Of a stretch of DNA of 64,000 nt, positions 8,352 through 58,480 are shown piece after piece (position 1 is the stretch's first letter; each line of letters opens with the position of its first letter). A program made the position numbers and the translations under genes. The notes beneath the pieces were generated by a model. That model did not search any database. It was not told the DNA's origin and worked only from the letters and a program-made list of their open reading frames with translations. This DNA comes from Psammoneis japonica (lineage: Eukaryota), in NCBI GenBank assembly GCA_008632985.1, contig QPGO01000104.1, positions 186,001 to 250,000 of the forward strand. The letters are read 5' to 3'.

Positions 8352-8748
8352 GACGCGCTCCAGCTCTGGGTGGGACCTTGCACCACTGCACTGTGACATC
8401 AACAGTTTTTTGGATCGCGTCGCATGTCACCCACGCACATTTCTACGTGTTGTGTTCTCCGAAATTGTTTCATGCTCCCTGTTTTGCGAAGCCAAAGGCT
8501 TTCCATTTTCAACATTTGTGAGAATGAAAATGTGCTGGGTGTTTTCTTTGATGTCTGAAGAACACACCCGGGCAAACTGTTGATGATGCACTGCAAGCAT
8601 GGAGGAGGAGATGCTTTCGTAAAATTGCCTCTTTTTCTGTTGGCGATCATTCACATTTTCATTGCAGCAAAAATTCACTGCAGAGCTTGCACGCAGAATT
8701 CTGCAGGCCCAATGTCACACGGAGTCCCGCCTGGGACTGGAACCCATC
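8352..8748 (+). mobile_element. MITE family A, copy 1 (~397 bp)
   Basis: TIRs GACGCGCTCCAGCTCTGGGTGGGA / TCCCGCCTGGGACTGGAACCCATC with 4-bp TSD AGAG. Near-identical to 48769-49162 and 57477-57874. Confidence 0.9.
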
Positions 8749-8829
8749 AGAGCCACAGAAAAAGCAAAATGATGCTGCGCATCTGAGAGGAAATGAAGCA
8801 CAGAAGCTTTGGAAAACAACAACAAACAA

Positions 8830-10685
8830 GTCCCGCATTTCCATGTTTTTGTGTTTTCCCGCATTTCCATGTTTTCGTGTTTTTCTGCATTTCCATGTTT
8901 TTGTGTTTTCCCGCATTTCCGTGTTTTGGTGTTCCGTGTTTTTGTGTTTTTCCATGTTTCCTTGTTTTCATGTTTTTCCGCATTTTCGTGTTTTCGTGTT
9001 TTCCTGCATTTCCATGTTTTCATGTTTTCCTGCATTTTCGTGTTTTTGCATTTTCCCGCATTTCCGTGTTTTCCCGCATTTCCGTGTTTTCCCACATTTT
9101 CGTGTTTTCATGTTTTCCCAAATTTCCGTGTTTTTGTGTTTTCCTGCATTTCCATGTTTTCGTGTTTTCATTGCATTTCCGTGTTTTCGTGTTTTCCTGC
9201 ATTTCGGTGTTTTTGTGTTTTCCCACATTTCTGCATTTTTGTGTTTTGTCGTGTTTCCATGTTTTGGTGTTTTCCCGCATTTCCATGTTTTTGTGTTTTT
9301 CCGCATGTCTGCATTTTCTTGTTTTCCAGTGTTTCCGTGTTTTTCCGCATTTCCATCTTTTCATGTTTTCCCGCATTTCCGTGTTTTCATGTTTTCCAAC
9401 ATTTCCGTGTTTTTGTGTTTTCCTGCATTTCCATGTTTCCGCTTTTCCTGCATTTCCTTGTTTTCGTGTTTTCCCACATCCCGCATTTCCGTGTTTTCAT
9501 GTTTTCCAACATTTCCGTGTTTTTGTGTTTTCCTGCATTTCCATGTTTTTGTGTTTTCCTTGCATTTCCGTGTTTTCGTGTTTTTGGGCACGCTGAATTA
9601 AAGTCACGCATTGGGCACATGCCCTCACTCCACTTTTGCCCCCGAATGGCCAGATCTGTAAAACGGATGTTTCTGTAAAACGCGCACGCAATTGGCGTGC
9701 ACGAACAGTCAAAATGTGCATCCGGCGGCAAGACAAGGGAATCGAACACGGCCCGGCGCAAGACGGACAGGTCTCACGCAGAATCCTGCGCAGACATGAG
9801 GTGATGAGCCAACCCATGTGTTTTGCACGACAAAGCACGTGTTTTACAGATCAACACGGTTTTACACCATTGCCCTCCCTCCCCCACTTTTCTCTGGAGG
9901 GTGCGCCCAATGCGCGACTTCAACTCAGTGCACCCTTTGTGTTTTCCCTCATTTCCGTGTTTTTGTGTTTTCCCGCATTTCCATGTTTTCCCACATTTCC
10001 TTGTTTTTGTGTTTTCCAGGGTTTCTGTGTTTTCATGTTTTCCCGCATTTCCGTGTTTTCGTGTTTTCCCACATTTCCTTGTTTTTGTGTTTTCCAGGGT
10101 TTCTGTGTTTTCATGTTTTCCCGCATTTCCGTGTCTTCGTGTTTTCCCGCATTTTCGTGTTTTCGCACATTTCCATGTTTTCGTGTTTTCCCATGTTTTT
10201 GTGTTTTCCTGTGTTTCCGTGTTTTCATTTTCCCGCATTTCCCTTTTTCATGTTTTCCCACATTCCTGTGTTTTCGTGTTTTCTCATGTTTCCAGGTTTT
10301 TGTGTTTTCTCGCATTTCCAGGTTTTTCTGTTTTCCCTCATTTCCGGGTTTTCATGTTTTCCCGCATTTCCTGGTTTTCGTGTTTTCTCTCTGCCATTCA
10401 TTGCAACGCCAGAGCACAATTTCGCGCCTTTCACAATTTCCTGTGTTTCCGTGTTTTTGTGTTTTCCCACATTTTCGTGTTTTTGTGTTTTCCTGCATTT
10501 CCGTGTTTTCGTGTTTTCCCACATTTCCGTGTTTTGTGTTTTCCCACATTTCTGTTTTTTTGTGTTTTCCCACATTTCCGTTTTTTTGTGTTTTCCTTGC
10601 ATTTCCGTGTTTCAGTGTTTTGGTGTTTTCCCGCATTTCTCCAGGTTTTTGTGTCTTCCCGCATTTCCGGGTTTTCTTGTTTTCC
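8830..10685. repeat. Satellite/minisatellite of 8-9-bp subunits (~26-bp higher-order unit TTTTCCCGCATTTCCGTGTTTTTGTG), interrupted by a MITE
   Basis: Directly visible tandem arrays at 8830-9585 and 9936-10685. Confidence 0.95.
9586..9935. mobile_element. MITE with ~35-bp TIRs (GGG...CCC), PIF/Harbinger-like
   Basis: Left end GGGCACGCTGAATTAAAGTCACGCATTGGGC; right end reverse complement GGGTGCACTGAGTTGAAGTCGCGCATTGGGC. Flanked by TTT/TTT inside the satellite. Confidence 0.8.
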
Positions 10686-12021
10686 TTTGATTTTGTGTGG
10701 TCCAGCAAAGGCTGCAGCCCTGAGCAAAAACAATGTGGCAGAGAAATCAACAAGCTTTCAATGAATGAGTTCCGGCACACAATGATTGACAAGGGCCACC
10801 ACAGCAAAGGATTCACTGCCATTTGCATGGCCCAAACAGCACCCACTCCATCAGCAACTCTTGGTGTTTCCAAAAACAAGCACGACATTGCAGTGGACCT
10901 GTTGCACAAGCTTGTCTCTGCTTCAAGTGACAAGGGATCCTTTCTGTGCCATTTCAGGGATGAAATGAACAAAACCTTTGCATCGCTCAAGCACGCACCC
11001 TGCCTCCTGCAACATGACTTTCTGGCAAGACTTGGTGCAGCACCAAGGAATGTTTGGCACCTGCATTTTGATTGCTGCTTTTTGGTTGGAACAAAGCAAC
11101 AACAATCACAAGAAACAAGAGCACCCCCATCCAGTGGCTGCAGTGCAGCTCAACAACTTGCCCTCATTCAGTCTCGCCACATGAACAATTCTGGTGTTGT
11201 TTCATTTTTCATGTGCCCTTCCTCAATGCATCCATGGTTTGTTCATTTCCTTTTTAATCCACCTGGCATGTTGGTCTGCTGTTGATTCCATTGGCTCTTG
11301 TTTCAACGAGTTGTCACCAAAAACATCAATTTAAACAGCTGCCTGTTGTGGTGCCTGCGGGAGCCACAAATCCATGTTTTTGATGTCTTTCTCATCATTT
11401 TCTCCTGCTTGCAACTGCTTGCTGTTGTTTTCTTGGGTCTTTTCTTGGGTCTCTTCTGTCCCGTCCATGTGGTCCCAGAACTCCCTCGAACAAACTTCGT
11501 TGCACTCATCTGCGTCCTTGCTCAATCTCTGCTTGTGTGAATCTTTTTTCCCAATTCTTTCTGCCACGGGTGCATTTTTTGGCAAAGAGCTTTTGGGCAG
11601 GAAAGACACTGTTAGCCCAGCAATGTACCTCCAGTGAGCTAGCCGAGATGTCCCGCTCTCGTTCTTCTGTTCAACAAAGCCGACACGTCCATTCGTTGAA
11701 AATTTCACAATGCCCTTGCCACATCATGGCCTCAGTCATTAAGAAAGGAAAAGTCTTAGCAGCAAACGACACATTCCAAACAGCTATGACGATGCTTCTG
11801 ATTCCTCGGTCCTAAATTGCCGCCTTTGTTTCGTGTGGCTTCGTACGACGGGGCGCCCTCATCGCATTTAACTAGTGAAGCAGAAAGAGTTGCTTTTCTC
11901 TAAAATTCTTCTCCTATGAATTAAAAAGTTAACTCTTGGAAACTTCCTTTGCTACGGACACAAACAAAAGGAATAATATTTTTGCATATCACTTCACAAA
12001 AGCATTCAACCACCAATGTCT

Positions 12022-19200: not shown

Positions 19201-19467
19201 TGCATGAGGAGATTATAGAAGAAAAAACAACAGTTAGTTGATCAATACCTGTTTGGCACAGTTTTTCTCAGCTAAAACATACCGCAGAGCAGCAGAAAAA
19301 AGTCACGATCAAAACTTACCGGGAGGAGGTAAAGCTGCTACAACTTCTGCCGTCAGGGGCTGACTGGTACTACTACTAGAAGTACTACTTGTTGAATTGT
19401 TATTATTTGGGGCAGACGACCGACCCCGACGCCGCTGCTCAGACTTGCCATGAAGAAAGTGTCCCAT
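16216..19467 (-). CDS. DPP9: Dipeptidyl peptidase 8/9-like (S9B); exons 19467-19320 and 19193-16216
   Basis: QEEMDRY, VYGGP, GWSYGG nucleophile, DENVH and ERH motifs. GT-AG intron 19319-19194 keeps frame (phase 1). Confidence 0.92.
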
Positions 19468-19599
19468 GGTTGTTGTTACGTTGCTGATTTTAGAGTGTGA
19501 GACAAAAACGCGTGCGTGCGACGTCGTCGCGTGACAAGAGCGGACCGACTGGCGAGCGACAAGTGTTCGCCTTTTGAGAACACCAACTTCTCACCAGTC

Positions 19600-22500
19600 A
19601 GATAGACAAACAGAAAATGCCAAACTGCTCTGTCAGCTGTCCGTCAACTTGCGCGGGATTTCATGTTGCCCCAGCGCAGCCCTAGCACAGTCATCTCACA
19701 ATCAGACATTTTCACCAATCAACTGCAACTGGCAGGGCTTGTGCCATGGTCCGTGAAAAGTTCTGTTGTGGCTGGGAGAGCAGAAGAGAGTGCATCAAAA
19801 ACAGGGCAAAAAACCAGCCGAGCATCGCGCACAGGAGGTGCTGGCACGCAGCACAAGTGCGCCCACTCCTTGCTGATGCAGCAAAGCCACACACTGGCCT
19901 CTGGCACTGGACAGCACAGTGCTCCTGCTCACACACACCTGTGTGGCACATCACATTTTGGCACAATGCAGACATGACCAGATGCCGTCATGCAAAATCT
20001 CAAGCCAGTGTGTGAGCAGTCCACTGGTGTTGCCAGAGGGACAGCTCACAGACACTCGCTGTCAAATGACAGCACTTGGCACAACATCTTGTGCAGCACT
20101 CAGAGCAAGGTAAAAGAGTTGTTCATGCAGCAACTCTGGAGAGAGAGCATGGTGACAAAAGACAAAGCTGCAGCCCGATGAGGTCATGATCACTCTTTTG
20201 AAGTTGACCATGGGTCCAGAGAGGCAACAAAATGACACACCACAGTCAAATGGTGTTCCCTGCAAAACAAAGCTGTGTCTGTTGGAAATTTGGCTGCTCT
20301 TGCTTGCTGTTTTGCTCTTGGGCTCACACAAAGTGCAGCAAAAAAAGCAGGCGGCACTGCGCTGGCTTTGCAGCAAACCGCTGCTTTCTCTTGCACTCTT
20401 CACAACAACTTGAATCCTTGCCCACATCTCTCTGGGATGAGCCACCCTCTTTTGAATGTGCGCGCTCATGACCTGGGTGCTGCAGAAGCCCAGCAACTGG
20501 CACCCAGCTCTGTCACACTTCCAGCTGCTCCCAAGGCATTTTTTGGGTTTTTTGAGCAACAAAGCTCTTTCCACTTTGTGGATGTCAACACAAGGTTTGT
20601 GCAGCTCCTGAGACGGGGCTCTGGCATCTGTGAGTGTGCTTGTCTTGATCTGCACAGCAAGTTTGACTTTTGTGCATTGTCAAGTTGGTTGAAATGTTGT
20701 CTCTCCTTTTCTCTCCAAGTCTGACCTTTGCCTCTTGTTTGGGTTTGGAGCTGGGTGGCAGACTTCCCCCCGCAAATCATGTCAGGGAAGCAGCGACATG
20801 TCAAGGAAGCAGTGACATGTCCCAGTGACAGGCGACATGCCAAACAACAATTTCATTGATTCATGGGCCAACCTCAGTCAAGTGCAATTGTCTTAAACTT
20901 TGCCACCAAGTGCAGCCAAATGTCTTGTTCATGCTCCAAGAAACATTTTCTCAATGAGAAGCAAGCTCCCAAAAAGTGATGCCCACATGTTCCAGTGCCA
21001 GGTGACATGCCAAACAAAATTTTCATTGATTCATGGGCCAACCCCACCCAATCAAGTGCAATTGCCTCAAACTTTGCCATCAAATGCAGCCAAATGTCTT
21101 GTTCATGCTCCAAGAAACATTTTCTCAATGAGAGGCAAACTCCCAAAAAGTGATGCCAACACAATGATGAACATGACCACACACACAGTGGTGGCTGCTT
21201 TCCACCTTGTGGCAACAAAAACAATGCCGTCAGCAGCACCATCACATTTTGCTTGGTCTGCAGGTGCCATTGTTCTTTTCATCAGTGAAATGACTTTGGA
21301 CTTGCAGAGCTTTCAGCATCTTGAAAGTGATGGAGTTTTTGCACCCTCCTCTTGGGCCATTTTGACCCCATGCTCTGAAAGTGTTCAATGTGAAAATGAT
21401 GACATTGAGTCCACTTCACATCCAAGTCAGCTCATGCAGTCATTTCGGTGTCACAAAGATTCATTTCAGTGACCTTGTGCACTGACTTTTGGGTGATGCA
21501 TCAAGACCTGCAAAATCCTTTGAACACAACAGCTCCATTTTTGCATGAAATGATCCACAATTCAACATTTCCTTCACAACACATGTTGCATTGGCTTCAT
21601 GCCTTTAACCAGCACTGCTTCCACAGTTGTGAAGTCAAAGAAAAATTTCAAGAACAACCACACACTGCCATGGCAACTTCTTGTGCGAAAAACACATGTG
21701 TCTGGACTGGGCACGGCTTCACTTGTTTTCCATGCTGTGAACAATGGTGTGCAGCCAGGCTCTCAGATGTGCCACAGCCAGCTTGCAAGCACAGAGATTT
21801 GAGCCTCAGCTGAGATCTGCAGTTTTGTCACACAGAAGCTGCCCAGCTGCAGCCATGTTGTCAGATGACAACTCTGCTTGTCTCTGTGCCATGCCTGCTC
21901 CATCCCCAACATGGCATGCAAGATCAACTCAAAAGCAAGTTTTCTTTCCACTGTCATGATGGCAAAGCCTGGTGAATTTGCAGCTGGCTGCTTGCAGGTG
22001 TCATTTGCTTCTTCTGCCACAACTTTGGCAGCAGACATTTGCTGAACAAGGCACCACATGGTCACCTGGTTTCCTGCCAATGCACACACCCCTTGATGGT
22101 GTGTTCAGCAGCACTTCATGGAGTGGTGCAAGCAAACACAAGAGCAGCAGATGCAAGCTCAGCAGGCAGCAGCAAGCTGAGGTCAAGCCACAGGTGCTGA
22201 TGCTTGCCAGAGCACCTCTGAACAACTGCACCATTGTCGTCATGACCACCCAACTTGGCAACAACAACTCCATCTCTCTTGCCGCACTGCACCCTGGGCT
22301 TTCCTTTTCTTGGTCTTTTTCATGCAAAGAGATGAGCTTCACTTGCTTTCATTGTTGCTGCCCATTTTTGCAGCATTTCTGTCTTTTTTGCTCTGTTGAC
22401 AACTGCCCTTCTTGCCCTGAAACGAGCCGACAACAACGTGCATGCCACATTGCTGCTGAGTGTGTGTCAGATCTGCACAGAGCAGAGCACTGGCACTGGG

Positions 22501-22860
22501 TGCCTCCTCCCACAGTGACATGTGCTGCTGCATTTGCAAGGAATCCTGGTTGGGGCATGCCAGAGGCTTGGGGCATTGTGTCAAGTTGGCTGTTGTTGCA
22601 CTGGGCTCCATTCTCAGACAGTGTCATGCCTCTTGGAGAGCACTGTCCTTGACATGGCTGTTTTGCTGCTGGCACACAGAGTGACCCTCCTTGGTGACTC
22701 CAGTCCATTGTGCATCAACAACACCTGCAGGGGTGAGTGCGCTGGTCCCTGGCTTCCCAATGAGCCCCCTCGGGTTGCACAGCTCCACATTGTTTGCTTG
22801 CTGCGGCAAACTCGAAGGCACAATTTTTTTGCATGTTGTGTGCGTTTTTTTCTCGGAAAA
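19600..22860. other. TpA/CpG-depleted degenerate repeat block 2 (unclassified debris left of the YR element)
   Basis: TA almost absent, TG/CA excess and no credible ORF. Confidence 0.75.
20834..21158. repeat. Tandem duplication of ~170 bp
   Basis: GACATGCCAAACAA...CCCAAAAAGTGATGCC occurs at ~20834 and ~21004. Confidence 0.85.
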
Positions 22861-23428
22861 TGCAGCTGTCGCCACTTTTCTTGTTTGTCCTCAGCAGAGT
22901 GATTCAAGCTAGGAGACAAGACACAACAGGACCAAATCCAACAGGCAGGAGTGGAGATGGCTTTGCTGGCACTGTGGGAAGCCCTGCTCCCAAACCCAAG
23001 CTGGACGGTGGGCCAGAGGGCAGGAGAGATGGGAGCAATTGACTGTCTAGAGCCCGGCTTGCTGTTGTTGTTCTCAAAAGAATGAAAACAATGAAAGCCA
23101 GAGAAGAGTCATTGTAACTCCCGTGCAACGTGCGGCACTTTCAATGGGAAGGAATTGGGAATCCCTCTTTGTGGATCTCACGAGGACAGCGGCTGTTGCC
23201 ACTTTTCTTGTTTGTCCTTGGCAGAGTGATTCAAGCCAGGAGACAAGACACAATGGGACCAAATCCAATGGGTGGGAGTGGAGATGGCTTTGCTGGCACT
23301 GCAGGAAGCCCTGCTCCCAAACCTGAGCTGGACAGCAGGCTGCCAGCACCACCCACAACAGCACAGCAATGCAGTGAAGGGCCTGTGACTTGGGCGGGAG
23401 GGTGGGCCACGTCTGGCGGGTGTGGCGC

Positions 23429-24600: not shown

Positions 24601-24666
24601 TAAAATGTTGCAAAAAGGCAGCAGTGGTTGGTGATCAGAGGCGGGAGGCATCGTCAGCGGCAGTGT

Positions 24667-41150: not shown

Positions 41151-41659
41151 AACGGCTGTAGAATGCAGCGCGTACGGCGTTTGGCGGAAGGCGGAATGGA
41201 ATGGGCGAATGAAGAGACGGTGCGGAGCGGAGGGAGGGTGAGCACATTGCTAGCGTCAGGCGTTAACTCTATCCACGGTGGAGGTGCGTGCTCTGTGCTC
41301 TTTGAAAAAGCCGCATACCGCATACTAAAACGTCCTCTGTAAAATCTACATTATTTCAATACCAAGAAATGTCCGTTCTGGTGTTCGGCGAAATGTCGCA
41401 CCTGTAAGTACGTCAGCGCCCCACGTGGAAGTCGCCGATCGTCTCACAAAATCTGCGCTGCGCTCACGCATTCCACATCACAAACATCATCTCTCCACGA
41501 GGAAAGTGCAAACGACCACCACGTTGAGAGCAGGATAGCCGAGCAACTCACATCAACTCATCTTCAACTTGCTCATTCAGCGGTACACCTAGCCGCCACT
41601 GCATTCTTTCTTGTTCACTAACATACGACTACACAAACACACACATACACGAACCGACA

Positions 41660-46620: not shown

Positions 46621-48376
46621 CGCGCGATTTTGCGGCCCGCATCTGGGCCGCAAAATTTTTATTGCAAATTTTTGCGACCCACATGCGGCCGCAAATTTGC
46701 CACAATTCTTAAAACGAAGCTTATCTCGTTGTTATTTTTGCGCGGGAAATCAATGTTGTAAGAGCGATGTGATGTCTTGTCATTTGTTGTTGAAAGTGTT
46801 TTTTTGCACTGCTTCCATTTTCGCATCGAGCATCGATCACTGTCAACATGGACAGCGAACGTGAGCAGAACACACGTGACGACGTATGTGAGTGTCCTTT
46901 TGTCATCGCTGACTGTCGTTCTGCCATTGTCTCTCTTATTTTGATGCTAACTGCAGACTGCTTTTTTCGTCTTCTGATTTCTGAAGCTGCCGTTGTGGCG
47001 TCATTCTGGGCTGCATTTGACAAAGGTTCGGAAGCGGCCATTCCAAGTGTGTCGTTCGTCCCTGCCGACGATGCTGTCACCGTAGTTGTGGACAGCGAAA
47101 AAGATGCTGACACTGCAGTGAAGGCAACGAAGGGCAGAATCACGCCCTTGGTGCGTTGCCGTGATTGTGGTGAAGCTCCCTGTGTCATGCCTGCCATTTA
47201 TGATCGCATGGTTTCGATTGGAGATGTTGGAGAAGAAATGGGTCTGAGCAACAAGCAGATCCGTTTCTCTCTCTACTGCGAGTCTATTTCTCTTCTGCAT
47301 GGATTCCTTGGTCGTCATCAACGTGTTGAGCTGCCGGATTGCATTCATCGTAAAATTCATGATCTGCACCCCCAAACCCGTGAAGAGCCGTGCACGGGTT
47401 TCAAAGCCAATGGGCAGGACACCAAGCAGCTGCTCGTCATGCAGTTGTTTTTTAATTTAGCCAAACCAATCTTGAAATCATCAACTGCTGGCATGCTGCG
47501 CACATCTTTGCAACAGTTGTAATTTTGCGGCCCACTAAAATGGATGCAACATCGCTGCGGAAATTGGTTTCTAATGGTTTTTCCTTGGAGAACAAATGTC
47601 GTTCCTCAACTGTTCCAATGGAGTTTTTATTTTGCCATCTGCTCTACTAAAACAGAAAATGGATGCAACATGGAGCACGAAATGCTAAAGGGCATCCGCC
47701 AGCACGAAGAAATCCACTCTGAATTTGTCAGGCTTGTCTTTGTTGTGTTGCCTGACGGGACAATGACGAGAACGACAGCTGACTCCACCCTCGTTGAATG
47801 TCAGATCGCCCCCCGGGATGAATGTACGACGAGCCGCAGCATTGAACTCGTTGCCGTTTGCTTTTCGAGGACACTCCAGCATCTGCCCGTGAACTTCCAT
47901 GCTGTCGATGCTTTCCTCTGCGGAATGGAGCGGCTGGTGTTGAGGATGCAAGCACATCATGTCAGAAACAATCAACTTTTGTTTGGCAAAGCTGAGTCGC
48001 ACTCGAGCTCTCTTGGCCACTGGCAACTCCACAGGAAGACTTGGAGGGGGGGCATGTGCGGGTGCAGATGGTGCTTCGGCAGCAGACTGCGACACCGGAT
48101 TTCGCGGCATGTCTTGAACAGGCGAAAAAGGCATGTCCGTTCCCACTGCAAGCAATGCTGACACATCTGGCACTTCTCTAACGATGTTGTCAGGCGTCCG
48201 AGATTGATGGAGTGAATGTCCTTCACCGGTGTGGCCCGCCGCAGGGTCGCCAAGATGAAGTGTCGATTCCTGTGTTTTCGGGTGTGGAGAATTCGACTGT
48301 GGGGTCAATTCATCGATTGTCTCTGTCATTGAAGATTTGAAAAAATTTGCGGCCCACACATGGGCTGCAAATGGCG
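46621..48376. mobile_element. Internally deleted piggyBac-like DNA transposon
   Basis: TTAA on both sides (46617-46620, 48377-48380). Imperfect TIRs CGC..ATTTGCGGCCC..TGGGCCGCAAA. Transposase fragment FIPGGDLTFNEGG..RHCPVRQHNKDKPDKFRVDFFVLADA at ~47690-47900 (-). Confidence 0.85.
46848..47522 (+). CDS. Accessory ORF in the piggyBac-like element with a Cys/His domain (C..C...PC...R..LY.....HG.LG...R..LP.C....I...P.....TGF)
   Basis: ORF track 46848..47522; the true start may be downstream. Motif resembles the P2X7-ballast/nanor-like domain (from memory). Confidence 0.55.
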   Translation: MDSEREQNTRDDVCECPFVIADCRSAIVSLILMLTADCFFRLLISEAAVVASFWAAFDKGSEAAIPSVSFVPADDAVTVVVDSEKDADTAVKATKGRITPLVRCRDCGEAPCVMPAIYDRMVSIGDVGEEMGLSNKQIRFSLYCESISLLHGFLGRHQRVELPDCIHRKIHDLHPQTREEPCTGFKANGQDTKQLLVMQLFFNLAKPILKSSTAGMLRTSLQQL

Positions 48377-48421
48377 TTAATGTCACACAATGCTTGTTTA
48401 ATGGGTCATTGTGTTTTATTT

Positions 48422-48540
48422 GTCCATGGATTAAAATCATTGCCACAATGGCAACGAATTCCTCGTAGATGATTTTTGTTCATCCATGGATTGAAATCAT
48501 TTTTGTGACAGAGTGATGAATTCCTCATAGATGATTTTTG
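48422..48540. repeat. Two ~60-bp direct repeats
   Basis: TCCATGGATT(A/G)AAATCATT...GAATTCCTC(G/A)TAGATGATTTTTG occurs twice. Confidence 0.7.
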
Positions 48541-48768
48541 CCATTTTCTGAAATCGACGGTGTGCACGTGCATTTTTTTGTTTTTGTTTTTTAGTGTGTT
48601 TCTTGTTTTTTGTGAACACTCAAGTGCACAATGAATTGAATTGGCAGTTTCTTGAGCATGCCACAAATTGATGTCAAGGTGCAGCATGCATGCCAGTGCT
48701 TGTCTTTTCTGACAACATGATCATCTTCTTGCAGCAGCCATCAGCGAAAACCAGACGAAAGCCCCCCA

Positions 48769-49162
48769 GACGCATTCCAGCTCTAGGTGGGATGTGCTGC
48801 TGCACTGTGACATCAATGGTTTTTTGGATCGCGTCGCATGTCGCGCACGCACATTTCTGCGTGTTACATTCTACGAAATTGTTTCATGCTCCCTGTTTTG
48901 CGAAGCCAAAGGCTTTCTGTTTTCAACGTTTGTGAGAACAAAAATGCACTGGGTGTGTTCTTTGATGTCTGAAGAACACACCAGGGCAAACTGTCAATGA
49001 TGTGCTGCAAGCACGAAGGAGGAGATACGTTCGTAAAATTGCCTCTTTTTCTGTTGGCGATCATTCACATTTTCATTGCTTTGCAAATTTGCTGCGGAGC
49101 TCGCACGCAGAATTCCACGGGCCCAATGTCACACGGAGTCCCACCCAGGACTGGAACCCGTC
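48769..49162 (+). mobile_element. MITE family A, copy 2
   Basis: Same TIRs and body as copy 1; TSD CCCA. Confidence 0.9.
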
Positions 49163-49643
49163 CCCAGACCTCTCCTGCCATGTGGGCTGTGGTGCGTGCC
49201 AACCCACACAGCTCTGTTGTCCATGCACAGATTTGAGTCATTCAAGACATCAACTCAGGATTGCCTCTGCTGCTGAATCAAACAAAAGGCACTTGCACTT
49301 TCTTCCTTCTCCTCGCACTGCAGCAACAAGCCAGCAGCAGCCATGGTCAGAAGTGCAAGAAGAGAGTGCCGCGCATCACATTGGCTGTTTTTGTTGAGTG
49401 CAGTTCCTGTGCTCCAAACCAAAGAGCTCTGTTGCAGCTCTCACAGCAATGCTGTGTGTTGTCTCACAACCCCAGCACTTTGTTTGCAGCCTGTGAGCGA
49501 TCTGTTCATTTTGACGTTGGCAAGTCTCAACCATTTGATGCAGTGTGAGTGAAAATCAACAGACAAAACCCAAGAAGGCTTTCAGCCAACAACCCAAAAA
49601 ACACAACAACTCCCATGGGGCTCCTTTTGGAAAGCGCGGTTGG

Positions 49644-50300
49644 GCCTGTTCCAGCTCCAGGTGCTCCGCGCGGGTTCGATTCCCATCATTTGGATTTTTG
49701 TGCATTTGGCGCAATTGACTTTTTCCAAATCCGTTTTTTGCCAAATCGAAGGGCAAGCGCACACTTTACATGCATTTTCGGGTGCACACTCACCTTTCGA
49801 TTTTCGAAACGATCAAAATTGAAGGAGTCAATTGCAGACGCGTTCCAGACGTGGGTGGGAATCTGTGTGACATTGGGCCCGTAGACTTCTGCGTGCGAGC
49901 TCCGCAGTGAAATCATGCGGCAATTAAAATGTCAATGATCGCCAACAGAAAATGAGGCAATTTTGCGAACACACAAACTCGCACATGATTGAAGCACATC
50001 ATTTTTTACTTGGCCAGCCACATTCTTCAGACATTGAAGAGTGCAACTGGCGCGTCATTGTTTCTGTGAATTTGTCGTGCAAAACATCTGGGGCTTCGCA
50101 AAACAGCGATTCTGGACAATTTTTTTTAAACATCACACATGGAAATCTACGTGCGAAACATGCGACGGATGACAAAAATTGTTGTTGTCACATGTCAGCA
50201 CTGCGAGCTCCCACCTGGGGCTGGAATGCGTCTGCGCCAAACTGCGTGAAAATCGGCCTCTCACGTGATGAAAAGCAGATCACCTGGAGCTGGAACAGGC
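49644..50300. mobile_element. Outer TIR element hosting a nested family-A-like MITE
   Basis: Perfect 20-bp TIR GCCTGTTCCAGCTCCAGGTG / CACCTGGAGCTGGAACAGGC, with GTTGG duplicated on both flanks. Confidence 0.8.
49837..50232 (-). mobile_element. Diverged MITE family A relative, inverted and nested
   Basis: GACGCGTTCCAG...CTGGAATGCGTC; body is reverse-similar to family A; TSD TGCA/TGCG. Confidence 0.85.
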
Positions 50301-53300
50301 GTTGGTGTGTGAATGGCAGTGCTGATGTGTCGCACAGATTCAGTGGAGAAAGAACATCATGCTTTGATTTTCTGTCAAAATCACAAGAGGAAACTGATCA
50401 AGTGGGAAGTTGGTGGTCAATTTTTGACAGCTTCTGGCAAACAAATGACTGAAAGAACACAGCTTGTTGCCAGACCAAGTGGCGTCCATGTTGCCCAAAA
50501 CATCAACCCAAAAGCAGCAACCCAAGTGGCTTGGATGATTGGCTTGTGTGGACAAGAGCAAAAGAATGACAGTGCTCCACCCCCAAAAAACAGCACAAGT
50601 GTCAAGCACTCTTGTGGTTGGCTCTGCAGGGCCACATGTGTGAAGAAGGTTGTGCTCCGCCATCTGGCCACATGTGCTCGCACATTTCAATTTCCTGTGC
50701 ACATCTCATGGCACAGAATCAATTTTGCTGAGCCACAGTTCTGGGCACTCAGGAGTTTGCCTGAGCTGCTCCTTGAGGGCTCCATTGAAGAGAGGTGACA
50801 ACAAACTGGGGGCAAATTTTGTGGTGGTCCCACCGTGGTGCACCTGCAGCCACACACCACACACCTGTCTGTGAGCTGCCCCTGCTTGTGCCTGTGCAAG
50901 AGTCTTGCATTGGCAAGGGTGTGCCACACCATTTTGACACTCCTGCCAGTCCAGAACAGCACTGAGCAGTTTGGCTGTGGGTGCTGTCTGACCCATCAGC
51001 CACCATGTTTGTGGAAATTCTTCTGCCAGCAATGTGTGCATTTGCGCAAACTTCCAATGCAGTGCTGTGCAGCCCTCCATGAAACTGAGCCAGCCCCCAG
51101 CAGCAGGTCGAATCTCTCAGTCCCATTTTCCAAGCCATTGCACTGCAGCTTTTCCCATTTCTCCATTGGCCCGGGCCTTTGTCATCTTCTGATGCAGCTT
51201 GTCTGCAATGAGGAAGTCCGCTGGCCTGCTGTTGGCATGTCATGGCAGGCTTGGGTGACTCACCCCACTGGCGCAACATCACCTTGTCAACTCTGCATTG
51301 CCCAGATGCATGCTTTGCACCCCGTTGCCTCTGACAAAAAGTGAGCAGGAGTTGGTGGTAAACAAAAATGACTCCTTTCTGCTGTCTGCACAGCAGATGA
51401 GTGTCCACACAGAGACCATTGCAGGAGCCGGCAGACATGAGCCATGACAACAGGTGCACTGTTCTCTTGTTCTTGATGTTGATGAGTTCCAGTCACTTCC
51501 TGTCAAATTGACAGCCTTCATGACCTTGTTGAATCATGAGCTGTTGTCGAGTGTCAAGAATGTTCTGCAGTGACACAAGTTCACAAGTGGTGGCCAGAGT
51601 CAATTCTGGGGCCCACTCAACAGCAAAGCCAGAAGCCACTTGAGAGAGAGCAGCACATGAGTGATGTTCACAGGGTGCCAGGTTGATGGGGAGCAACAGA
51701 AATCAAAGAAGAACAAATTTTGGTGGCCAACCTCAATGGACTCATGAAGAATGAGAAAACAGCGAACAGCCAGAGTGACAAACAGGCAGCACAAAAACCA
51801 ACAAATCACTCCTTGAACACTGCACCTTGTGGCTGGGGAATGGAAAATCCATCAGCCTTGCCAGGTGATGGTCATTCTGGTGCACACCCCAAAGTGGGCT
51901 TGGGTTTGAGTCACACCAACCAAGTGTTTTGGCCACCTGTGAGACTTTCACATGGGTGCGAGCTGTGACATGCACAAGACCAATCACCCACAGCTGGCCA
52001 CACCAAAAACTGTTCCTGACCCTGGAACATGATGCACCCCTTTCTCCTGTGAGGGCACCTGCAATGGTCTCTGCACAGAGACTCATTTGCTGCGCAGACA
52101 GCAGCAAGATGTTGTGCCATGTCTGGGTCAGAGCACTGCTTGCTGTGTCCCACAGATGTCACCAAGCTCAGCTTTGAAGATGGGGCACAAATGACGTCAC
52201 TCTTGCTTTTGCTCAAATCCTGTCCTGTCAGCCTCCTTGAAGGTTTCAGGTCTGCTGTGGCATGCTCTTGTGCACCCTGGCCCACTTGCCTCATGCCAAC
52301 ATTGTCCATTCACACTGTCCACAGGAACATCAGAGTTTTCCTTTGTCCAGTCCAAAGGGGGCACAAAACTTGGCACAAACTTGCTGTTCATGAGGTGTGG
52401 CTGGTGTGTTTTTTGCATCTCTGCTGGCCTCTCCTTTGCAACTGTGTCTGTGTCCATGTTCATCTGCAAGGGACAGTCCAAGGTTTTGCATGCAACAAAA
52501 TCATCTGGGTGTCCTTCAACCTTCATGGCGACCCAAGTGAGAGGTTGCTTTCAGAGTTTGAGGTGCACATTGAGCAGATGACATTGTGTCACTTGCCTGT
52601 TGCAGTGAGGCTGTGCTCAATGTTTTTTTGCTGCACTCCCAAGAGCTTGATGGTCACTGCTCCCATCAGCCACAGTCCTTTGCTCTGTTTTTTGAACCTT
52701 GCGTGCAATGATGGATGTGAGCTCCATCCACTGCACCACAACAGACAGAAGGCCAGTCAACTCTGCACAACATGCACCACCCAAGTTTGAAGCAGGGTCT
52801 CTGGACCTTGCTCGTGCTCTCTGCTTTCTGCATTTGACAGCCTCTGTTCTTCACACAAAAGAGCCAGTGGAAAGTGCTGCAGCCACGCTCTGCTCTCTGG
52901 ATGCCCTGCAGCAGCGCTGGTTGCCATTGTTGTCATTCTTGCACCCCCCTTTGCTGGCCATCTGAAATCTTGGCAAAAACTCCCAGTGTGCTCTTGCAGG
53001 TCTGTTGGGCTGGCCTGGGTCTCTGTTTTGACTCTTGTGGCCAATGGAAATTTTGCCCATTTCCCCTGCATGCTGGTGATGACAGTGACCAGCCCTTGCT
53101 GGGCAACCCAGAGCTGGAGCATCTCCATGTGGTGTGTCCTCATCTGCCCTTTTGTGCACTCTCGCTTTTGTGATGTCCACAGGAAACAATGCCATTGTTT
53201 GTGGTTGTGATCTGTTTGCCACTTCAGTGGTGTGTTGTTGATGTTTTGATTCTGTTGCCCCAAACTGCACTCAACCAGGTGCTTCCTTCTGCCACACCAC

Positions 53301-54100
53301 CGGCCACTCTTTGGCTGATTCCCTTGTGCTGGCCACCAGTCAAGTGTGGCTCTTGGTGCTGGTCATGAGCGGGTGGTTTCCTCTCAGGCTGCAAGGCAAA
53401 ACCTCCCCCCCCAAGCCACACTGGAGAACACATTCACCTGCAAGCACAGACAATGCAGACTGAGCCTTGTGCCAGGGGCTTGCATGTGAGCCCCCACCAC
53501 CCCACCACCCCACCACTCTCTTGAGCCCAGAGGCTTCAGGAACTTGTTGACTCTCCTTTGTTGACAAACAAAGTCAGTTTCTGTGCAGAAGTCATGCTCA
53601 CTTTGGAGCTCATGTGTTCTTTGCAAATGGCAAGAAATTGGCAGCCCTTGCAGCTTTGTTCAAAGAGCTGTGCCCTGGCGAGCCAATCTCCAAGCACACA
53701 CAGTGCAAATGCTTCCACCACCAGACAAACTGGCCCTCACCACAACAGCTCTCCAGTGAGCAATGGTGGTGCTCTCTGTTGAGAGTGCTGGAGGTTTGCT
53801 TCCAGCATGTGAAAAAAATGAGGGGTGTGTCGCCAGTGTGTGGCACGAGTGCTTCGACCATTGTTGCACCTGGGTGCTCCCTCTGTGTGTGCAAGACAGA
53901 TGTCTGCTCTTGTTCAGAGGAACGTCTCTCTTTGATTGTGAGCTGCCAATGCAGCTTGAACAAATTCTCTTTTAGATTTGGCTTTTATGTGCTTTCCTTC
54001 ACTGCAGGCCCTGGACTGGCCAGCCAGTTTTCGGCGGTCGCATCCAAAAGCAAGTGTGGTGGCGTCTGTGACGTCACGGCTGTCGCCCGAAAGTTGCATG
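50300..54100. other. TpA/CpG-depleted degenerate block 5 (unclassified part)
   Basis: Virtually no TA over ~3.6 kb; no credible ORF. Confidence 0.8.
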
Positions 54101-54175
54101 CAGGAGTGAGGAGTGAACCCCCAAAACGCGACCAGATTCACCCAGCGACGAAGCAACACACAATTTGTGAACAGC

Positions 54176-54970
54176 ATGAAATTAGATGGAAAGAACATCA
54201 TCATCACTGGTGCAGCATCCGGCATCGGCAAAGCTTTATTAGAACAGCTAGTCAGGACGGACGCAAATGCCATTTTTGCAGTCGATGTGAACGCCGAATT
54301 GATCAAGAAAACCTGTTCCAGATTGCGCTCACCAAAAGTTGCGCCATATGTTTGCGACGTTTCGGATCAAGTAAACATCGATAAATTATTCCACCATGCA
54401 AAAGAAGAGCTCGGCACCATTGATGTGTTTATTGCAAATGCCGGCTTTGCATATTATGAACGGCTCGACGGAGCGAACTACGAACAAATCGAGAAGATAT
54501 ACCAAGTGAATGTGTTTAGTGCGATATATTCCTTTGAAAAGATGCAACAAATCAACCGAGGCCGTGACCACAAGACTGTAATCACTGCATCAGCAATGGC
54601 GCACATGGGTGTACCGGGGTATGCTCTGTACGCTGGAACGAAATCAGCCTTGCACCGGTTTGCTGAAAGCGTTCGCTGGGAAATGAGCAATCCTGAAGAG
54701 TTGATGTTGGTGTATCCGATATCCACACGAACCAGCTTCTTTGATGCGGCTGGTAACGGGGTGCCGACGGCGTGGCCTACCCAGTCATCGGAAACTGTTG
54801 CCCGTGCAATGCTTCATGGCATCAGGCGGGACAACCAGAGCGTTTATCCTTCCTACCTCTTTCGCGTTACTCGGTTGCTCAAACGATTTTTACCAGTACA
54901 TCGCGTGGTCCTCTACCCGGAGTATCGAAAGTTCCAAAAATGGGATAATGCAGAGTGTTCCATTCATTAG
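54176..54970 (+). CDS. Classical short-chain dehydrogenase/reductase
   Basis: TGAASGIG, NAG, S and YAGTK motifs; intronless. Confidence 0.92.
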   Translation: MKLDGKNIIITGAASGIGKALLEQLVRTDANAIFAVDVNAELIKKTCSRLRSPKVAPYVCDVSDQVNIDKLFHHAKEELGTIDVFIANAGFAYYERLDGANYEQIEKIYQVNVFSAIYSFEKMQQINRGRDHKTVITASAMAHMGVPGYALYAGTKSALHRFAESVRWEMSNPEELMLVYPISTRTSFFDAAGNGVPTAWPTQSSETVARAMLHGIRRDNQSVYPSYLFRVTRLLKRFLPVHRVVLYPEYRKFQKWDNAECSIH

Positions 54971-55093
54971 AAGTTAGAATTAAGATTTACAAGCAACGCA
55001 AATTTTGCACAAGTCGATTTGAAAGTTTCGTGGGCAACTGATGGAGTTTACTCCCATCTATATACTGCTAGACAATACGTCCTTCATTAAATA

Positions 55094-55660: not shown

Positions 55661-55899
55661 GAGTGTAAAAGCGAGCAACGAAACTGCAAGTCAAAGCGCT
55701 CATGTTTGTTGCATGTGCAGCTGTGCCGCATGATCCCGCTTCCTCTCTTATCACACCAAAGTGAACCTCAACAAGCTGGAAGCGCAATCGCAGATCTTTT
55801 CGCGCGCAACGGACGGACAGAATAGAAATCGAAGGGCCCTGCTGCTCTCTGCTGTAGCTTGAGCAATGAATGTAGCTCTCTGCTAAAGGTCGATTCTAG

Positions 55900-58480
55900 A
55901 GAGAAAAAACAGCTTCGTCTCAAGGACTGATTCTGCACTGCAGCGCAGCTTGAGACAAAGGATGTCTCTCTTATTTTTAACTGTGATGTGCACGCGATGA
56001 GAGTGAGCACTGCGAAGCACCGTTCTCAGTGGCGGCACGTGGTCGACAAAGAGCTGCTGCATCCTTTGTGCCGACTGTCGTGAGACACATGCAAAATGTG
56101 ACATAAAGATTTCCAACTGCAATTGCAACTTTTTTGCTGGTCCTTGTCAAATTGGCTTTCGGTTTGCATGCAGCTCCTTGAAAGCAGAGCTGCATGTGGC
56201 GACTCTTCAGGGCAAGACTTGGGACATTGCTCGACTGTTGTTGTGATCGTTTTGCTCCCATCAGGAAATGCAATTTCTTCATTTTTTCTGTTTTGCTGCA
56301 GGTTCCTTCTTCAATGGTCATGGGGGTTGGCCAGTTGGAGTTTCCACTTGTGGCAAAACAAGTTTCCGTGCGGACAACGTGCAGATGCAATGAAGGACAG
56401 CCGCTCCGATCCATTTGAGCACGGATTTGGAATGAGCTCGACAAGCAGGCTCCAGATCTGATCACTGATGGTGCAGAGCTCCCATCAATTGCACTTTTGG
56501 TTTCACGCACTGTCCCATCATAAAGCACATCACGTGCCACATCACACAGCCAAGCTGCATTGACGCCATGGGGCGAAAATGAGCAAGGTGTTGTGATTGC
56601 CACTGTCGCTTTGAAGGGGAAGCAAAAAATGTTCCAAACAAGGCACCAACCATTGTTTGCAGTGTCCAACAACTGCACTTGCTGCACAAACCAGCTCTTC
56701 TTCTCTTTTTGAAAAAAAAACATCCCATTGTTCCTTTTCTGTGTCATGCACGGCGGTGCATTGTCGACGTTGGAAACCAGAGTGTCATTTTCTGCATCTG
56801 TCATGGGAAACTGGCAGAAACAAAAATGATGCTGTCCACACGTGTGCATTCATTAGATGCCAGAATTCCTCAGATGCTGACAATTGCGTCTGCAGTGGAA
56901 ATCAACCCAGTGATTGCAGACTCATCAATGCAGCGGTGTGAGAGCCCTGCAGAAAAAATGTCAGCAAACACACTGCTTGTTGGCATGTCCAAATGCGGCA
57001 TGACAGTCAACAGTGCCAAGAAATCCAGCACAGCCATCAAAACAAGCACTGTTTTGCAGTGGTGTGACCACACTCTCATCTTGATTGACGTTGCGGCCAT
57101 CGATCTACAAACGATCAAGTCCCATGGTGGGAGACGCGGTGTTTTTTGCTGTTCTGAGCATTGCATTGGATGGGTGCAACTTCAAAATGCCACGTCATGT
57201 GCCACAACAACACACAGCTTTGTGTGCAATGCACTGGGTGACAATGTGTGAACCTCAAGCAACCAGGAGGTGGTGGCCGTCCAACCCACCAAAAGTGACC
57301 CGGATGTTGGGATTCTCAATTTGCCAAAATCAGGTGATTTTGCCAAATCCAACCAGCCATCCACCCTCGTTGTGACTGATTTCTGGCCACTCGCCGGAAG
57401 GGCACATTGACTCATTGTCACTCACATGGGGGGCTGCTCTGGCTGACTCATGGCACTTGGTGCCTGCATTGCCAGGGACGCGTTCCAGCTCCAGGTGGGG
57501 ACCTCGCACTGCTGCACTGTGACATCAAGAGTTTTTTGGATTGTGTGGCATGTCGCGCACACAGATTTCTGCGTGCGACATTCTACAAAATTGTTTCATG
57601 CTCCCCATTTTGCAAAGCCAAAGGCTTTCTATTTTCAACATTTGTGAGAATGAAAATGCTCTGGGCACATTCTTCAATGTCTGAAGAATGTGCCCGGGCA
57701 AACCATTGACAATGCACCGCAAGTGTGGAGGAGGAGATGCGTTCGTAAAATTGCCTCTTTTTCTGTTGACAATCATTTGCATTTTCATTGCTTGACAAAT
57801 TCACTGCGGAGCTCGCATGCAGAATTCTGTGGGCCCAATGTCACACGGAGTCCCACCTGGGACTGGAACCCATCCAGGGCAGAAGCATTCTCTGGGTGAT
57901 CTTCACAATCATCAGGTCTTGGCCCACCTGTGCAGCTGAGAGCAACCAGCATGATGAGAAATGCAGAGTTGGCGAGGATGATGCTCACACCCACACTTGG
58001 CCACCAAGAATCACAAGAACAACCATTTTCTCCCTGGTCATCATGCCTGTGGTCACTTGTCACAGCAGCTGTTGCCACCTGAAAGGCGCCAGCACACATG
58101 CAAAGACAGCCCAAAGCCCCCACCAAAGTGAGCTCACATGCATCTTCATGTGGCACCACCAGAGCCAGTGGACAAGGAGAACACTTGTGACAGCACAGCC
58201 AGATTCACAACCAGAGATTTGCAGCTGCACACGGACACTGCTGCAGCTGACAAGATCCAGGAGGCAGTGGCGCAGGCAAGCCAAGCACTGCCCACCTGTC
58301 GTTTGTCAAAGCAGCATTTGAGCAAAATCATCAGGTGAGACTTGTTTCAGAGCCTGGCACAAAGCTGCATCACAATGGATGATGGCAGAAATCCCAGCTT
58401 TCTTGTGACATCCCACTCACCCAATCCTCGCAGCAACTTCTTTCCCCTTCTTTTGTGGCACACTTTGCCGCCGCCCTTTT
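55900..58480. other. TpA/CpG-depleted degenerate block 6
   Basis: Same composition as the other blocks; contains MITE A copy 3. Confidence 0.8.
57477..57874 (+). mobile_element. MITE family A, copy 3
   Basis: Same TIRs and body as copy 1; TSD CAGG. Confidence 0.9.

Follow-up and report, generated by a model that had tools for sequence, protein, structure and literature searches.

Probable erosion of TpA to TpG and CpA across silent, gene-free DNA of a pennate-diatom-like genome

About half of a 64-kb window from a single genome, that of Psammoneis japonica (GCA_008632985.1, contig QPGO01000104.1, positions 186,001-250,000 of the forward strand; the window is this whole stretch), consists of blocks from which the dinucleotide TpA has almost vanished. 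Together these void blocks span 34,100 bp and hold 158 TA where 2123 are expected (observed/expected, o/e, 0.07) and 920 CG where 2134 are expected (0.43), with TG at 1.64 and CA at 1.77. We consider it probable that a context-specific process turns TpA into TpG or CpA in the silent, gene-free compartment of this pennate-diatom-like genome. The observations collected here demonstrate the direction of the change, that it affects TpA and CpG only, that it stays within blocks, and that transposon, retroelement, host pseudogene and unannotated DNA are treated alike. The blocks, which carry no strand, are as follows:

2401..11750, TA-void block 1: MITE copy A, tandem arrays and a ferrochelatase pseudogene; TA o/e ~0.05
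19451..29300, TA-void block 2: GC 0.55; a decayed retroelement; 29 TA in 9850 bp, o/e 0.06
32201..34800, TA-void block 3: TA o/e 0.08, CG 0.21
38301..41250, TA-void block 4
47651..54200, TA-void block 5: MITE copies B and D; a 2614-bp TA-less run at 51359-53973
55901..58700, TA-void block 6: MITE copy C; TA o/e 0.07

Over the window as a whole, TA stands at 0.32 and TG/CA at 1.42-1.48. Genic DNA has TA at 0.57 and CG at 0.95, and short intergenic spacers between neighbouring genes keep their TA (0.69-1.15). The void blocks end about 0.1-0.9 kb from genes, and every long gene-free block lies at a TA o/e of 0.03-0.08, whether it holds the MITE, the reverse transcriptase (RT)-like retroelement, the ferrochelatase pseudogene, tandem repeats or DNA without recognisable origin. 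Pyrimidine-purine steps make up nearly equal shares of void and genic DNA (0.245 versus 0.240), so the two differ by transitions only. Cuts for low TpA and high TG/CA, applied to 1-kb windows, pick out runs of three to eight; for example, 3001-9000, 20001-28000 and 50001-54000 have TA at 0.00-0.08 and mean TG/CA at 1.54-2.00. Both cuts are also passed at 9001-10000 and 28001-29000, and the tandem-array window 10001-11000 passes on mean TG/CA (1.88), with TG alone at 1.20. Duplicate pairs within void blocks show TG-for-CA double swaps, in either direction, in 13 of 55 difference events, as against 1 of 119 for genic paralogs. Strand-coordinated editing was considered and rejected: neighbouring TG/CA steps in void DNA agree with one another in 3000 of 6006 comparisons (z -0.33), and there is hence no processive one-strand signature.

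Two alternatives can be weighed on composition. Selection might purge TA from non-genic DNA where it does harm, for instance by attracting nucleases or transposons or through DNA mechanics; most genomes show a mild avoidance of TA, as do the genes of the window (0.47-0.66). It is barely credible, however, that selection accounts for the void blocks, where o/e values of 0.03-0.08 persist over kilobases: it would, implausibly, have to work at thousands of individual positions in junk DNA, the purge extends to tandem repeats, pseudogenes and defunct transposon copies, and the short non-coding spacers between genes are spared. Biased repair would also change A:T to G:C at TpA, if methylated DNA recruited a G:T-mismatch glycosylase that excised the T facing a G regardless of which strand was newly made. 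The loss of TA and of CpG in the same places suggests methylated DNA and is consistent with such recruitment. Glycosylases of this kind prefer a CpG context, and one would therefore rebuild CpG from CpA and TpG faster than it eroded TpA. Since CpG is instead depleted (0.43), and other A:T sites are without visible effect (AT 0.82, AA 1.29, TT 1.28), this explanation is decidedly unlikely.

Evidence on a context-specific process acting on TpA comes from a family of miniature transposons with copies in three of the blocks. The initial annotation compared copies A, B and C and read TA/TG/CA triads as ancestral TA mutated independently on either strand. The elements concerned are:

8352..8748, plus strand, MITE copy A: 397 bp; target duplication AGAG; TA o/e 0.08, CG 0.65
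48769..49162, plus strand, MITE copy B: 394 bp; target duplication CCCA; TA o/e 0.19, CG 0.91
57477..57874, plus strand, MITE copy C: 398 bp; target duplication CAGG; TA o/e 0.11, CG 0.62
about 49837..50234, minus strand, degenerate MITE copy D: site 1 is CA; flanks CGCA and TGCA
8536..8572, plus strand, MITE internal hairpin: DNA fold z -3.0 (A), -5.2 (B), -9.2 (C)

Pairwise identities among A, B and C are 87.1, 84.6 and 83.5%. Copies A and B form the closer pair, with C more distant from both. The inverted ends span about 25 nt, with 5-6 mismatches between the left end and the reverse-complemented right end, and the target duplications are 4 bp long. In sequencing run X1 the family occurs in 2517 contig pieces, and its summed word depth, which is not copy number, is 1e5-4e5 against ~60 for single-copy contigs; the ends of copy A coincide with a depth jump and with loose ends in X1 contigs. 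Copies A, B and C are thus a high-copy MITE, a non-autonomous DNA transposon, for which a 4-bp duplication alone names no superfamily. Run X2 has one contig piece of the family and adds no information, and neither an Rfam search of the 64-kb window nor a metagenome scan using the most abundant MITE core gave a match. In the hairpin of copy C, TG/CA states are exchanged in both arms and the 16-bp stem is perfect. Selection on the stem was rejected as a reading of this swap: with two or three site pairs per lineage its chance is ~1/8 to 1/16, which is no evidence of selection.

The letters quoted by the annotation are all present exactly as given. Site 1 reads CTC-TG-GG in copy A (8364-8370, dinucleotide 8367-8368), CTC-TA-GG in B (48781-48787, dinucleotide 48784-48785) and CTC-CA-GG in C (57489-57495, dinucleotide 57492-57493). 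At site 2 the copies read TTC-CA-TT (A; 8501-8507, dinucleotide 8504-8505), TTC-TG-TT (B; 48915-48921, dinucleotide 48918-48919) and TTC-TA-TT (C; 57627-57633, dinucleotide 57630-57631). Elsewhere, copy A has TTTCTACG where B and C have TTTCTGCG, and GATACG in B corresponds to GATGCG in C and GATGCT in A. Across the 89 aligned pyrimidine-purine steps, 18 are TG/CA-dimorphic without an intermediate, 22 vary with CG and 5 with TA; the last include both triads, and one CA/CG/TG triad also exists. This pattern is far from chance. Three copies alone are nevertheless unable to polarise any change: the proposal that TA became TG or CA on either strand holds up overall, through family depth, codons, rate model and composition, but not as a proof from three copies.

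Family variants were drawn from the contigs of run X1, possibly the very data behind the window's assembly; their shares are depth-weighted across contigs, tilted towards the reference copy A, and refer to the variants listed (40 of 125). Among these, T replaces C at 8504 in 75% of the depth and no variant is given for 8505, making TA the plurality at site 2 and a CG consensus there impossible. The listed variants also include C>A at 8459 (89%), G>A at 8550 (66%), C>T at 8676 (85%) and A>G at 8677 (45%), and TA is the family majority or plurality among them at 8458, 8504, 8549 and 8676. Where copy A has lost a CpG, a CG-restoring G or C accounts for 61-95% of family depth among the listed variants. 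Ancestral TA thus stands for the triad at site 2. It does not for site 1 or for GATACG/GATGCG, where no listed variant reaches 35% against the TG of copy A (for variants outside the 40, a share below 35% is deduced from those listed) and TG rather than TA therefore looks like the family majority. Position 8620 is TA in all three copies yet CA in 65% of family depth, with no matching TG among the variants listed, which points to subfamily structure. Tightly linked TG/CA dimorphisms, such as that at 8384/8385 (80% in X1, without intermediates), must be older than the MITE burst.

Counting changes in copies A, B and C against the inferred family majority state brings out an asymmetry. TA has become TG or CA in 10 of 15 instances (67%), and TA has arisen from TG or CA in 6 of 222 (Fisher test, p = 1.7e-10). 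CpG decay is the slower of the two losses, CG having become TG or CA in 17 of 66 instances (26%; p = 0.005 against TA loss). A rate model points the same way, on the assumption of independent copies, from which the closeness of A and B departs, and of a single rate per dinucleotide. With CG retention at 0.57 per copy it yields 1.4 (at most 3.9) TG/CA-dimorphic sites where 18 are seen, and CpG decay is accordingly unable to produce them; the excess implies ~27 founder TA, against 26.2 expected at o/e 1.

These figures bear directly on the possibility that the sites began as CG, that deamination of one strand or the other gave TG or CA, and that a second deamination gave TA. CpG decay is real, as the 17 of 66 majority-CG instances and the CA/CG/TG triad attest, but a CG origin for all 18 sites would demand a founder with 40 CpG against 22.8 expected, and the observed retention supplies 1.4 such sites. 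The rarity of TA gain (6/222) speaks against it as well, as do the 75% T at 8504, which contradicts it at site 2, and tyrosine codons, which are never CG and yet were lost in 10 of 11 cases. A CG origin is hardly conceivable on this evidence; a CG consensus, ruled out directly at site 2, falls at site 1 by inference only.

The codon evidence, polarised by outgroups, comes from two decayed genes in void DNA:

3936..5000, minus strand, ferrochelatase pseudogene: at least 4 frame changes; PF00762 E 2.7e-10 and 3.9e-11; TA o/e 0.04, CG 0.14
25687..26940, minus strand, RT-like retroelement gene remnant: open, 418 codons; 1909 homologs, best E 1.2e-85

Ten of their 11 conserved Tyr codons are lost, eight to TGY and two to CAN, and none of 20 conserved His/Cys/Gln/Trp codons has gained TA. 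In the ferrochelatase pseudogene, five of eight conserved Tyr are now Cys (TGY), one is His (CAC), one Gln (CAA) and one kept, with TA in 0/12 conserved His/Cys/Gln/Trp codons; TGG or CAA has replaced three of seven conserved Arg codons, and the pseudogene is devoid of CGN. All three conserved Tyr of the RT-like ORF have become TGC, its conserved TG/CA-bearing codons have become TA in 0/8 cases, and its Tyr content is 0.35%, where the median for homologs is 2.5%. Conserved Arg codons across both genes are now TGG, TGT or CAY/CAA. RVT_1 matches weakly in 5 of 11 scanned homologs of the RT-like ORF. Of 144 ORFs in the void blocks, four had a Pfam match at E <= 0.01, and only two ferrochelatase fragments passed; sub-threshold matches were NF-Y-like (11334-11723, minus strand) and GT20 C-terminus (48409-48720, minus strand), and P0136 and P0137 had no Pfam match even at E 10. 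Taken with the family depth, these codons indicate that the direction of change was very probably from TA to TG and CA.

The void blocks might be an artefact, as might the frame changes in the ferrochelatase remnant, if a long-read basecaller systematically miscalled TA and CG of heavily modified DNA as TG and CA; where the modified step is a palindrome, errors specific to one strand would produce precisely these two dinucleotides. Such an origin is very improbable. The 418-codon RT-like ORF is intact, and 92% of sampled 31-mers from 8300-18000, about one third of which is void, occur in run X1, whose word depth of ~50-66 in single-copy contigs and contig total of 141 Mb fit accurate rather than noisy reads. 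Differing states of MITE copies are, moreover, found in separate X1 contigs.

The process that we favour would be a transition, from A:T to G:C, that strikes the A of TpA on one or other strand, independently from site to site. Both self-complementary pyrimidine-purine steps, TpA and CpG, would be lost as TG and CA accumulate, with CpG loss attributable to ordinary 5-methylcytosine deamination. TA/TG/CA triads would then represent ancestral TA sites caught mid-way, and TG-versus-CA double differences between copies those fully resolved. Our best guess at the agent, offered tentatively, is enzymatic adenine deamination in TpA of DNA, aimed at silenced, repeat-rich chromatin. Alternatively, the thymine of TpA could be modified in silent chromatin, to an oxidised or J-like base that mispairs with G at replication and yields T to C. 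In other protists, TpA is a favoured context for thymine modification. Such an agent would fit the strict TpA context, the compartment restriction and the strand symmetry (TG 1.64 versus CA 1.77; no strand runs). We regard it as unlikely: no thymine-hydroxylase family is seen in the 64-kb window, whose sole 2OG-Fe(II) oxygenase (1101-2282) matches PF13640, PF13661 and no other family.

Should the TpA-directed process be real, no dinucleotide in the genome's silent half would be as mutable as TpA, CpG included, and the usual GC-to-AT mutation bias would be locally reversed. A hypermutation process described in a chlorarachniophyte in 2026 would be extended to a major phytoplankton group, with its end state visible as DNA poor in CG and all but devoid of TA. 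As TA is lost before CG, the two could serve as a clock for dating insertions. TA-void blocks offer a simple genomic test for the same system in other protists. In metagenomes, no 1-kb window combining TA o/e < 0.15 with TG/CA > 1.4 occurs in any of 67 loci that encode a DPPIV relative; these loci are often short genic contigs, many of them bacterial, and so say little about other diatoms. For annotation there is a twofold warning, in that void blocks yield long spurious ORFs and that Tyr-poor, Cys/His-rich pseudo-proteins escape profile searches.

Three familiar processes resemble that described here. Methyl-CpG decay likewise leaves TG or CA, depending on the strand hit, in place of a self-complementary pyrimidine-purine step, and its CpG deficit and TpG/CpA excess are present in the void blocks (CG 0.43, TG 1.64, CA 1.77), but it cannot remove TA or Tyr codons, both of which are lost here. 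RIP, in fungi, shares the regional, transition-only, context-dependent decay of repeats and duplicated genes. RIP turns CpA into TpA, enriching TA, whereas TA is destroyed here (o/e 0.07), an opposite polarity, and DNA without a duplicate in the window is affected too; a RIP-like C-to-T change at CpA was rejected, TA o/e being 0.07 in void blocks and 0.08-0.19 in MITE copies. ADAR-type A-to-I hyperediting has the A-to-G change and the 5' U/T preference in common. ADAR editing works on double-stranded RNA and is heritable solely via reverse transcription, unlike the present case, in which a cut-and-paste MITE, a pseudogene and multi-kb blocks are affected without strand runs.

Full-text literature, with subscription journals outside coverage, yielded no TpA-void compartment or TpA hypermutation in diatoms, and in what was found TpA-targeted mutation is known from only one other alga, Bigelowiella natans. 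According to the preprint, integrated viral DNA undergoes TpA-specific hypermutation in that species, with two viral insertions that mutate, 124 clusters at Rho TpA <= 0.43, an NCLDV region at 0.45, and an adenine deaminase acting on DNA as the proposed agent (Mettrop et al., bioRxiv 10.64898/2026.01.13.699255, 2026 preprint). On that reading, both systems make almost exclusively A-to-G and T-to-C changes at TpA, giving TpG or CpA by strand, and both are confined to regions where low TpA accompanies high CpA+TpG across runs of 1-kb windows; transposable-element-type genes (reverse transcriptase, DDE) are among the B. natans targets, as an RT-like gene is here. B. natans is a chlorarachniophyte, whereas the present genome is that of a diatom-like stramenopile, and the effect here is more extensive, with long gene-free blocks, ~half of 64 kb, at 0.03-0.08. 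Targets here also include a host-gene pseudogene, a MITE, tandem repeats and unannotated DNA, as opposed to foreign DNA only, and CpG is depleted in the same blocks, for which the sections of the preprint consulted hold no counterpart. It is possible, if tentative, that diatoms or this lineage possess a chromatin-targeted DNA-editing defence, a mirror image of fungal RIP that would deaminate adenine at TpA until all TA in silent DNA is gone, shared with chlorarachniophytes and perhaps old in SAR. Such a defence would shape half the genome, remove TAA and TAG stops from that half and create long false ORFs.

The composition of the window is bimodal, divided between a genic remainder and six blocks nearly void of TA steps, which sum to 34,100 bp, about half of its length:

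2401-11750, TA-void block 1
19451-29300, TA-void block 2
32201-34800, TA-void block 3
38301-41250, TA-void block 4
47651-54200, TA-void block 5
55901-58700, TA-void block 6

Within these blocks TA occurs 158 times versus 2123 expected (observed/expected ratio, o/e, 0.07) and CG 920 times versus 2134 (0.43), with TG and CA at o/e 1.64 and 1.77; one run without any TA extends for 2614 bp. The corresponding values in the genic remainder (28,147 bp) are 0.57 for TA, 0.95 for CG and 1.16-1.17 for TG/CA. Because pyrimidine-purine steps make up an equal share of the void and genic sequence (0.245 versus 0.240), the two differ only by transitions inside those steps. The void sequence is complex, with low complexity ruled out. 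Four short intergenic spacers retain TA at 0.69-1.15, so noncoding status alone is insufficient for TA loss, and gene flanks of ~0.4-0.9 kb are intermediate (0.26-0.64). The blocks thus show a regional, transition-only process, specific to TpA and CpG, with a net flow into TG/CA, that ends near genes. It has acted on both a DNA transposon and a retroelement, as well as on a host pseudogene, tandem repeats and DNA without annotation; that selection against TA produced this pattern is extremely unlikely.

Neighboring TG/CA steps in the blocks are alike in 3000 of 6006 cases (z -0.33), indicating random interspersion; each site resolves on its own strand. Among six duplicate pairs in void blocks other than the MITE, double swaps between TG and CA account for 13 of 55 difference events, versus 1 of 119 in three genic paralog pairs. 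TTAA (void/genic ratio 0.51) and CTAA/TTAG (0.33) are overrepresented among the residual 158 TA steps, and ATAT (0.014), ATAC/GTAT (0.045) and GTAC (0.048) are almost absent; the process may prefer certain flanking bases, or this may be an effect of block margins.

Four copies of one element offer a closer view of these changes:

8352-8748, MITE copy A, flanked by the 4-bp direct duplication AGAG
48769-49162, MITE copy B, flanked by the 4-bp direct duplication CCCA
57477-57874, MITE copy C, flanked by the 4-bp direct duplication CAGG
~49837-50234, minus strand, MITE copy D, the degenerate fourth copy

Copies A, B and C begin GACGC..TTCCAGC and end in an imperfect reverse complement of ~25 nt (5-6 mismatches); the element, with these inverted ends and the 4-bp duplications, is a MITE. 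A hairpin lies inside it (8536-8572 and equivalents in B and C); in copy C, three site pairs have TG and CA exchanged on the two arms, and the stem is a perfect 16 bp with a DNA fold of -19.4 kcal/mol (z -9.2), although the numbers are too small to tell from chance. Pairwise identities among A, B and C are 87.1, 84.6 and 83.5%, and 89 of 398 alignment columns vary, mostly by transitions at pyrimidine-purine steps. Separately, 89 steps with CG, TG, CA or TA in all three copies were classed: 44 are invariant TG or CA; 18 are TG in some copies and CA in others, without an intermediate; 22 involve CG, one of them as a CA/CG/TG triad; and five involve TA. The last class includes both TG/TA/CA triads from which the initial annotation had argued that ancestral TA mutated to TG or CA on either strand, and every letter it quoted was found in place. 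Exchange between TG and CA is the commonest kind of difference, though it needs two adjacent transitions, as expected if the copies inherited an unstable self-complementary step, TA or CG, and each resolved it independently of the others.

A CpG origin for the dimorphic sites is highly improbable. CG is present in three, two and one copies at 4, 11 and 7 sites, giving a retention of 0.57 per copy, and under a model of independent copies with a single rate per dinucleotide, CpG decay predicts 1.4 fully decayed dimorphic sites (at most 3.9 in the support interval) versus 18 observed. Had these sites been CG, the founder would have carried 40 CpG versus 22.8 expected; the excess of dimorphic sites instead corresponds to ~27 founder TA sites, where 26.2 are expected at this composition and a TA o/e of 1.

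The wider family was read out by comparing copy A with contigs of a public sequencing run, X1, which contains 92% of sampled words from 8300-18000 and may be the very data behind the assembly of the window; a basecalling artefact as the source of the pattern is very unlikely. At an 80% likeness threshold 2517 contig pieces match copy A, and summed word depth reaches 1e5-4e5, where single-copy contigs have ~50-66. This makes the family very abundant, although summed depth does not equal copy number. It has subfamily structure, for example a linked TG/CA dimorphism at 8384/8385 (80%, without intermediates among the variants listed) and position 8620, where A, B and C keep TA and 65% of X1 depth has CA. 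Directly left of copy A lies a second repeat family (8150-8237; summed word depth ~1300-1650), whose X1 majority letters are unlike the window at 8180, 8189 and 8191.

The read-out covers 40 of 125 variant rows, with listed shares down to 35%, from which unlisted places are taken to lie below 35%; shares are weighted by depth and biased towards the reference copy A. On this basis TA ancestry holds at site 2 of the two triads (8504-8505), where T at 8504 makes up 75% of depth and 8505 has no listed variant, so that TA is the plurality and a CG consensus is excluded. It is not borne out at site 1 (8367-8368) or at the GATACG/GATGCG difference, which have no variant to copy A's TG among those listed. 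TA also predominates, as majority or plurality, at 8458/9 (A 89%), 8549/50 (A 66%) and 8676/7 (T 85%, G 45%, hence TA at least 40%). Where copy A lost CG (8429, 8431, 8533, 8615, 8682, 8688 and 8705), the CpG-restoring base occupies 61-95% of depth, and CG is retained in 65% at 8694. Against the inferred family majority among listed variants, A, B and C changed TA to TG/CA in 10 of 15 instances and lost CG in 17 of 66, with TG/CA becoming TA in 6 of 222 and CG in 5 of 222. The spectrum is thus asymmetric in the direction first proposed (Fisher tests: TA loss versus gain, p = 1.7e-10; TA loss versus CG loss, p = 0.005).

Two gene remnants in the void blocks, listed here with a further long open frame, provide a check independent of the MITE:

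~3936-5000, minus strand, ferrochelatase pseudogene, four or more frame changes
25687-26940, minus strand, open reverse-transcriptase-like remnant of 418 codons
27655-28989, minus strand, open frame P0136 of 445 codons, without a Pfam match

The ferrochelatase remnant keeps 96 identities at 139 columns conserved among 15 homologs, and a functional copy must be located elsewhere in the genome. Few Tyr and many Cys/His residues mark its composition: of eight conserved Tyr, five are now Cys (TGY), one His (CAC) and one Gln (CAA), with one retained, and seven conserved Arg are now two TGG, one CAA and four AGR. None of 12 conserved His, Cys, Gln or Trp codons became a TA codon. The reverse-transcriptase-like frame has 1909 homologs (best E 1.2e-85) and 82 identities at 111 conserved columns; Pfam missed it in the window copy, and RVT_1 matched weakly in 5 of 11 homologs scanned. 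All three conserved Tyr are TGC, four of nine conserved Arg are CAY or TGT, and TA was gained by none of eight conserved His, Gln or Trp codons; Tyr makes up 0.35% of residues and Cys 5.3%, versus 2.5% (median) and 1.0% in the homologs. Pooled, Tyr codons were lost at 10 of 11 positions and the reverse occurred at 0 of 20, upholding the direction from TA to TG/CA. Two Pfam matches below threshold, located within void blocks or at their margins, to a trehalose-phosphate-synthase C-terminus (48409-48720, minus strand; E 6e-4) and an NF-Y/histone fold (11334-11723, minus strand; E 2e-3), may represent additional remnants.

TA was lost earlier than CG, as seen from MITE B (TA 0.19, CG 0.91) through MITE A, MITE C and the reverse-transcriptase-like frame (0.08-0.11, 0.62-0.68) to the ferrochelatase remnant (0.04, 0.14). 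Void blocks are almost without TAA and TAG, leaving TGA as the sole stop, and hold 182 ORFs that run 90 codons or more from stop to stop; a Pfam scan of 144 void-block ORFs gave only two matches above cut-off. Such frames are a trap for gene callers. The void block that holds the 418- and 445-codon frames is GC-rich (0.55-0.61), and two tandem arrays, with 69-71% matches and units differing mostly by CG/TG/CA at shared positions, give rise to spurious ORFs as long as 562 codons:

8831-9584, tandem array of a 26-bp unit, 29 copies
9936-10621, tandem array of a 26-bp unit, 26 copies

The host is a eukaryote, and the window has long, unbroken ORFs. Its DPPIV gene (998 codons) has best matches at 59-61% identity, the named members being raphid pennate diatoms. 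Two paralogous genes, in tandem 2078 bp apart and 73-79% alike in repeated parts, have normal TA and CG content:

12022-13797, minus strand, paralogous gene 1, without a Pfam match
14445-15839, minus strand, paralogous gene 2, without a Pfam match

As to the agent, we tentatively regard a DNA adenine deaminase as the likeliest. Directed to silent repeat chromatin, it would deaminate adenine in TpA to hypoxanthine, yielding A:T to G:C changes at the A of TpA, and CpG loss would follow from ordinary 5-methylcytosine deamination. A mutagenic modification of thymine at TpA is a doubtful alternative, and biased G:T repair an improbable one.

A full-text literature search found no report of TpA-void compartments or TpA hypermutation in diatoms, and no comparable 1-kb window occurred at 67 metagenome loci with DPPIV relatives, a weak comparison given many short genic contigs and many bacterial ones. 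Fungal RIP has the opposite polarity. The closest illustration comes from Bigelowiella natans, where, according to a preprint, the same signature arises de novo in mutation-accumulation lines, is limited to integrated NCLDV and virophage DNA, and is attributed to a proposed ADAT2-like DNA adenine deaminase (bioRxiv 10.64898/2026.01.13.699255). By the cluster definition used there, runs of 3-8 consecutive 1-kb windows here satisfy both cut-offs, with TA far under the Rho TpA cut-off of 0.43. The lineage differs, however, and so do extent (about half of a 64-kb window, rather than particular viral insertions), TpA depth (0.03-0.08 here versus 0.45) and the fate of CpG, which is lost in the same blocks here.
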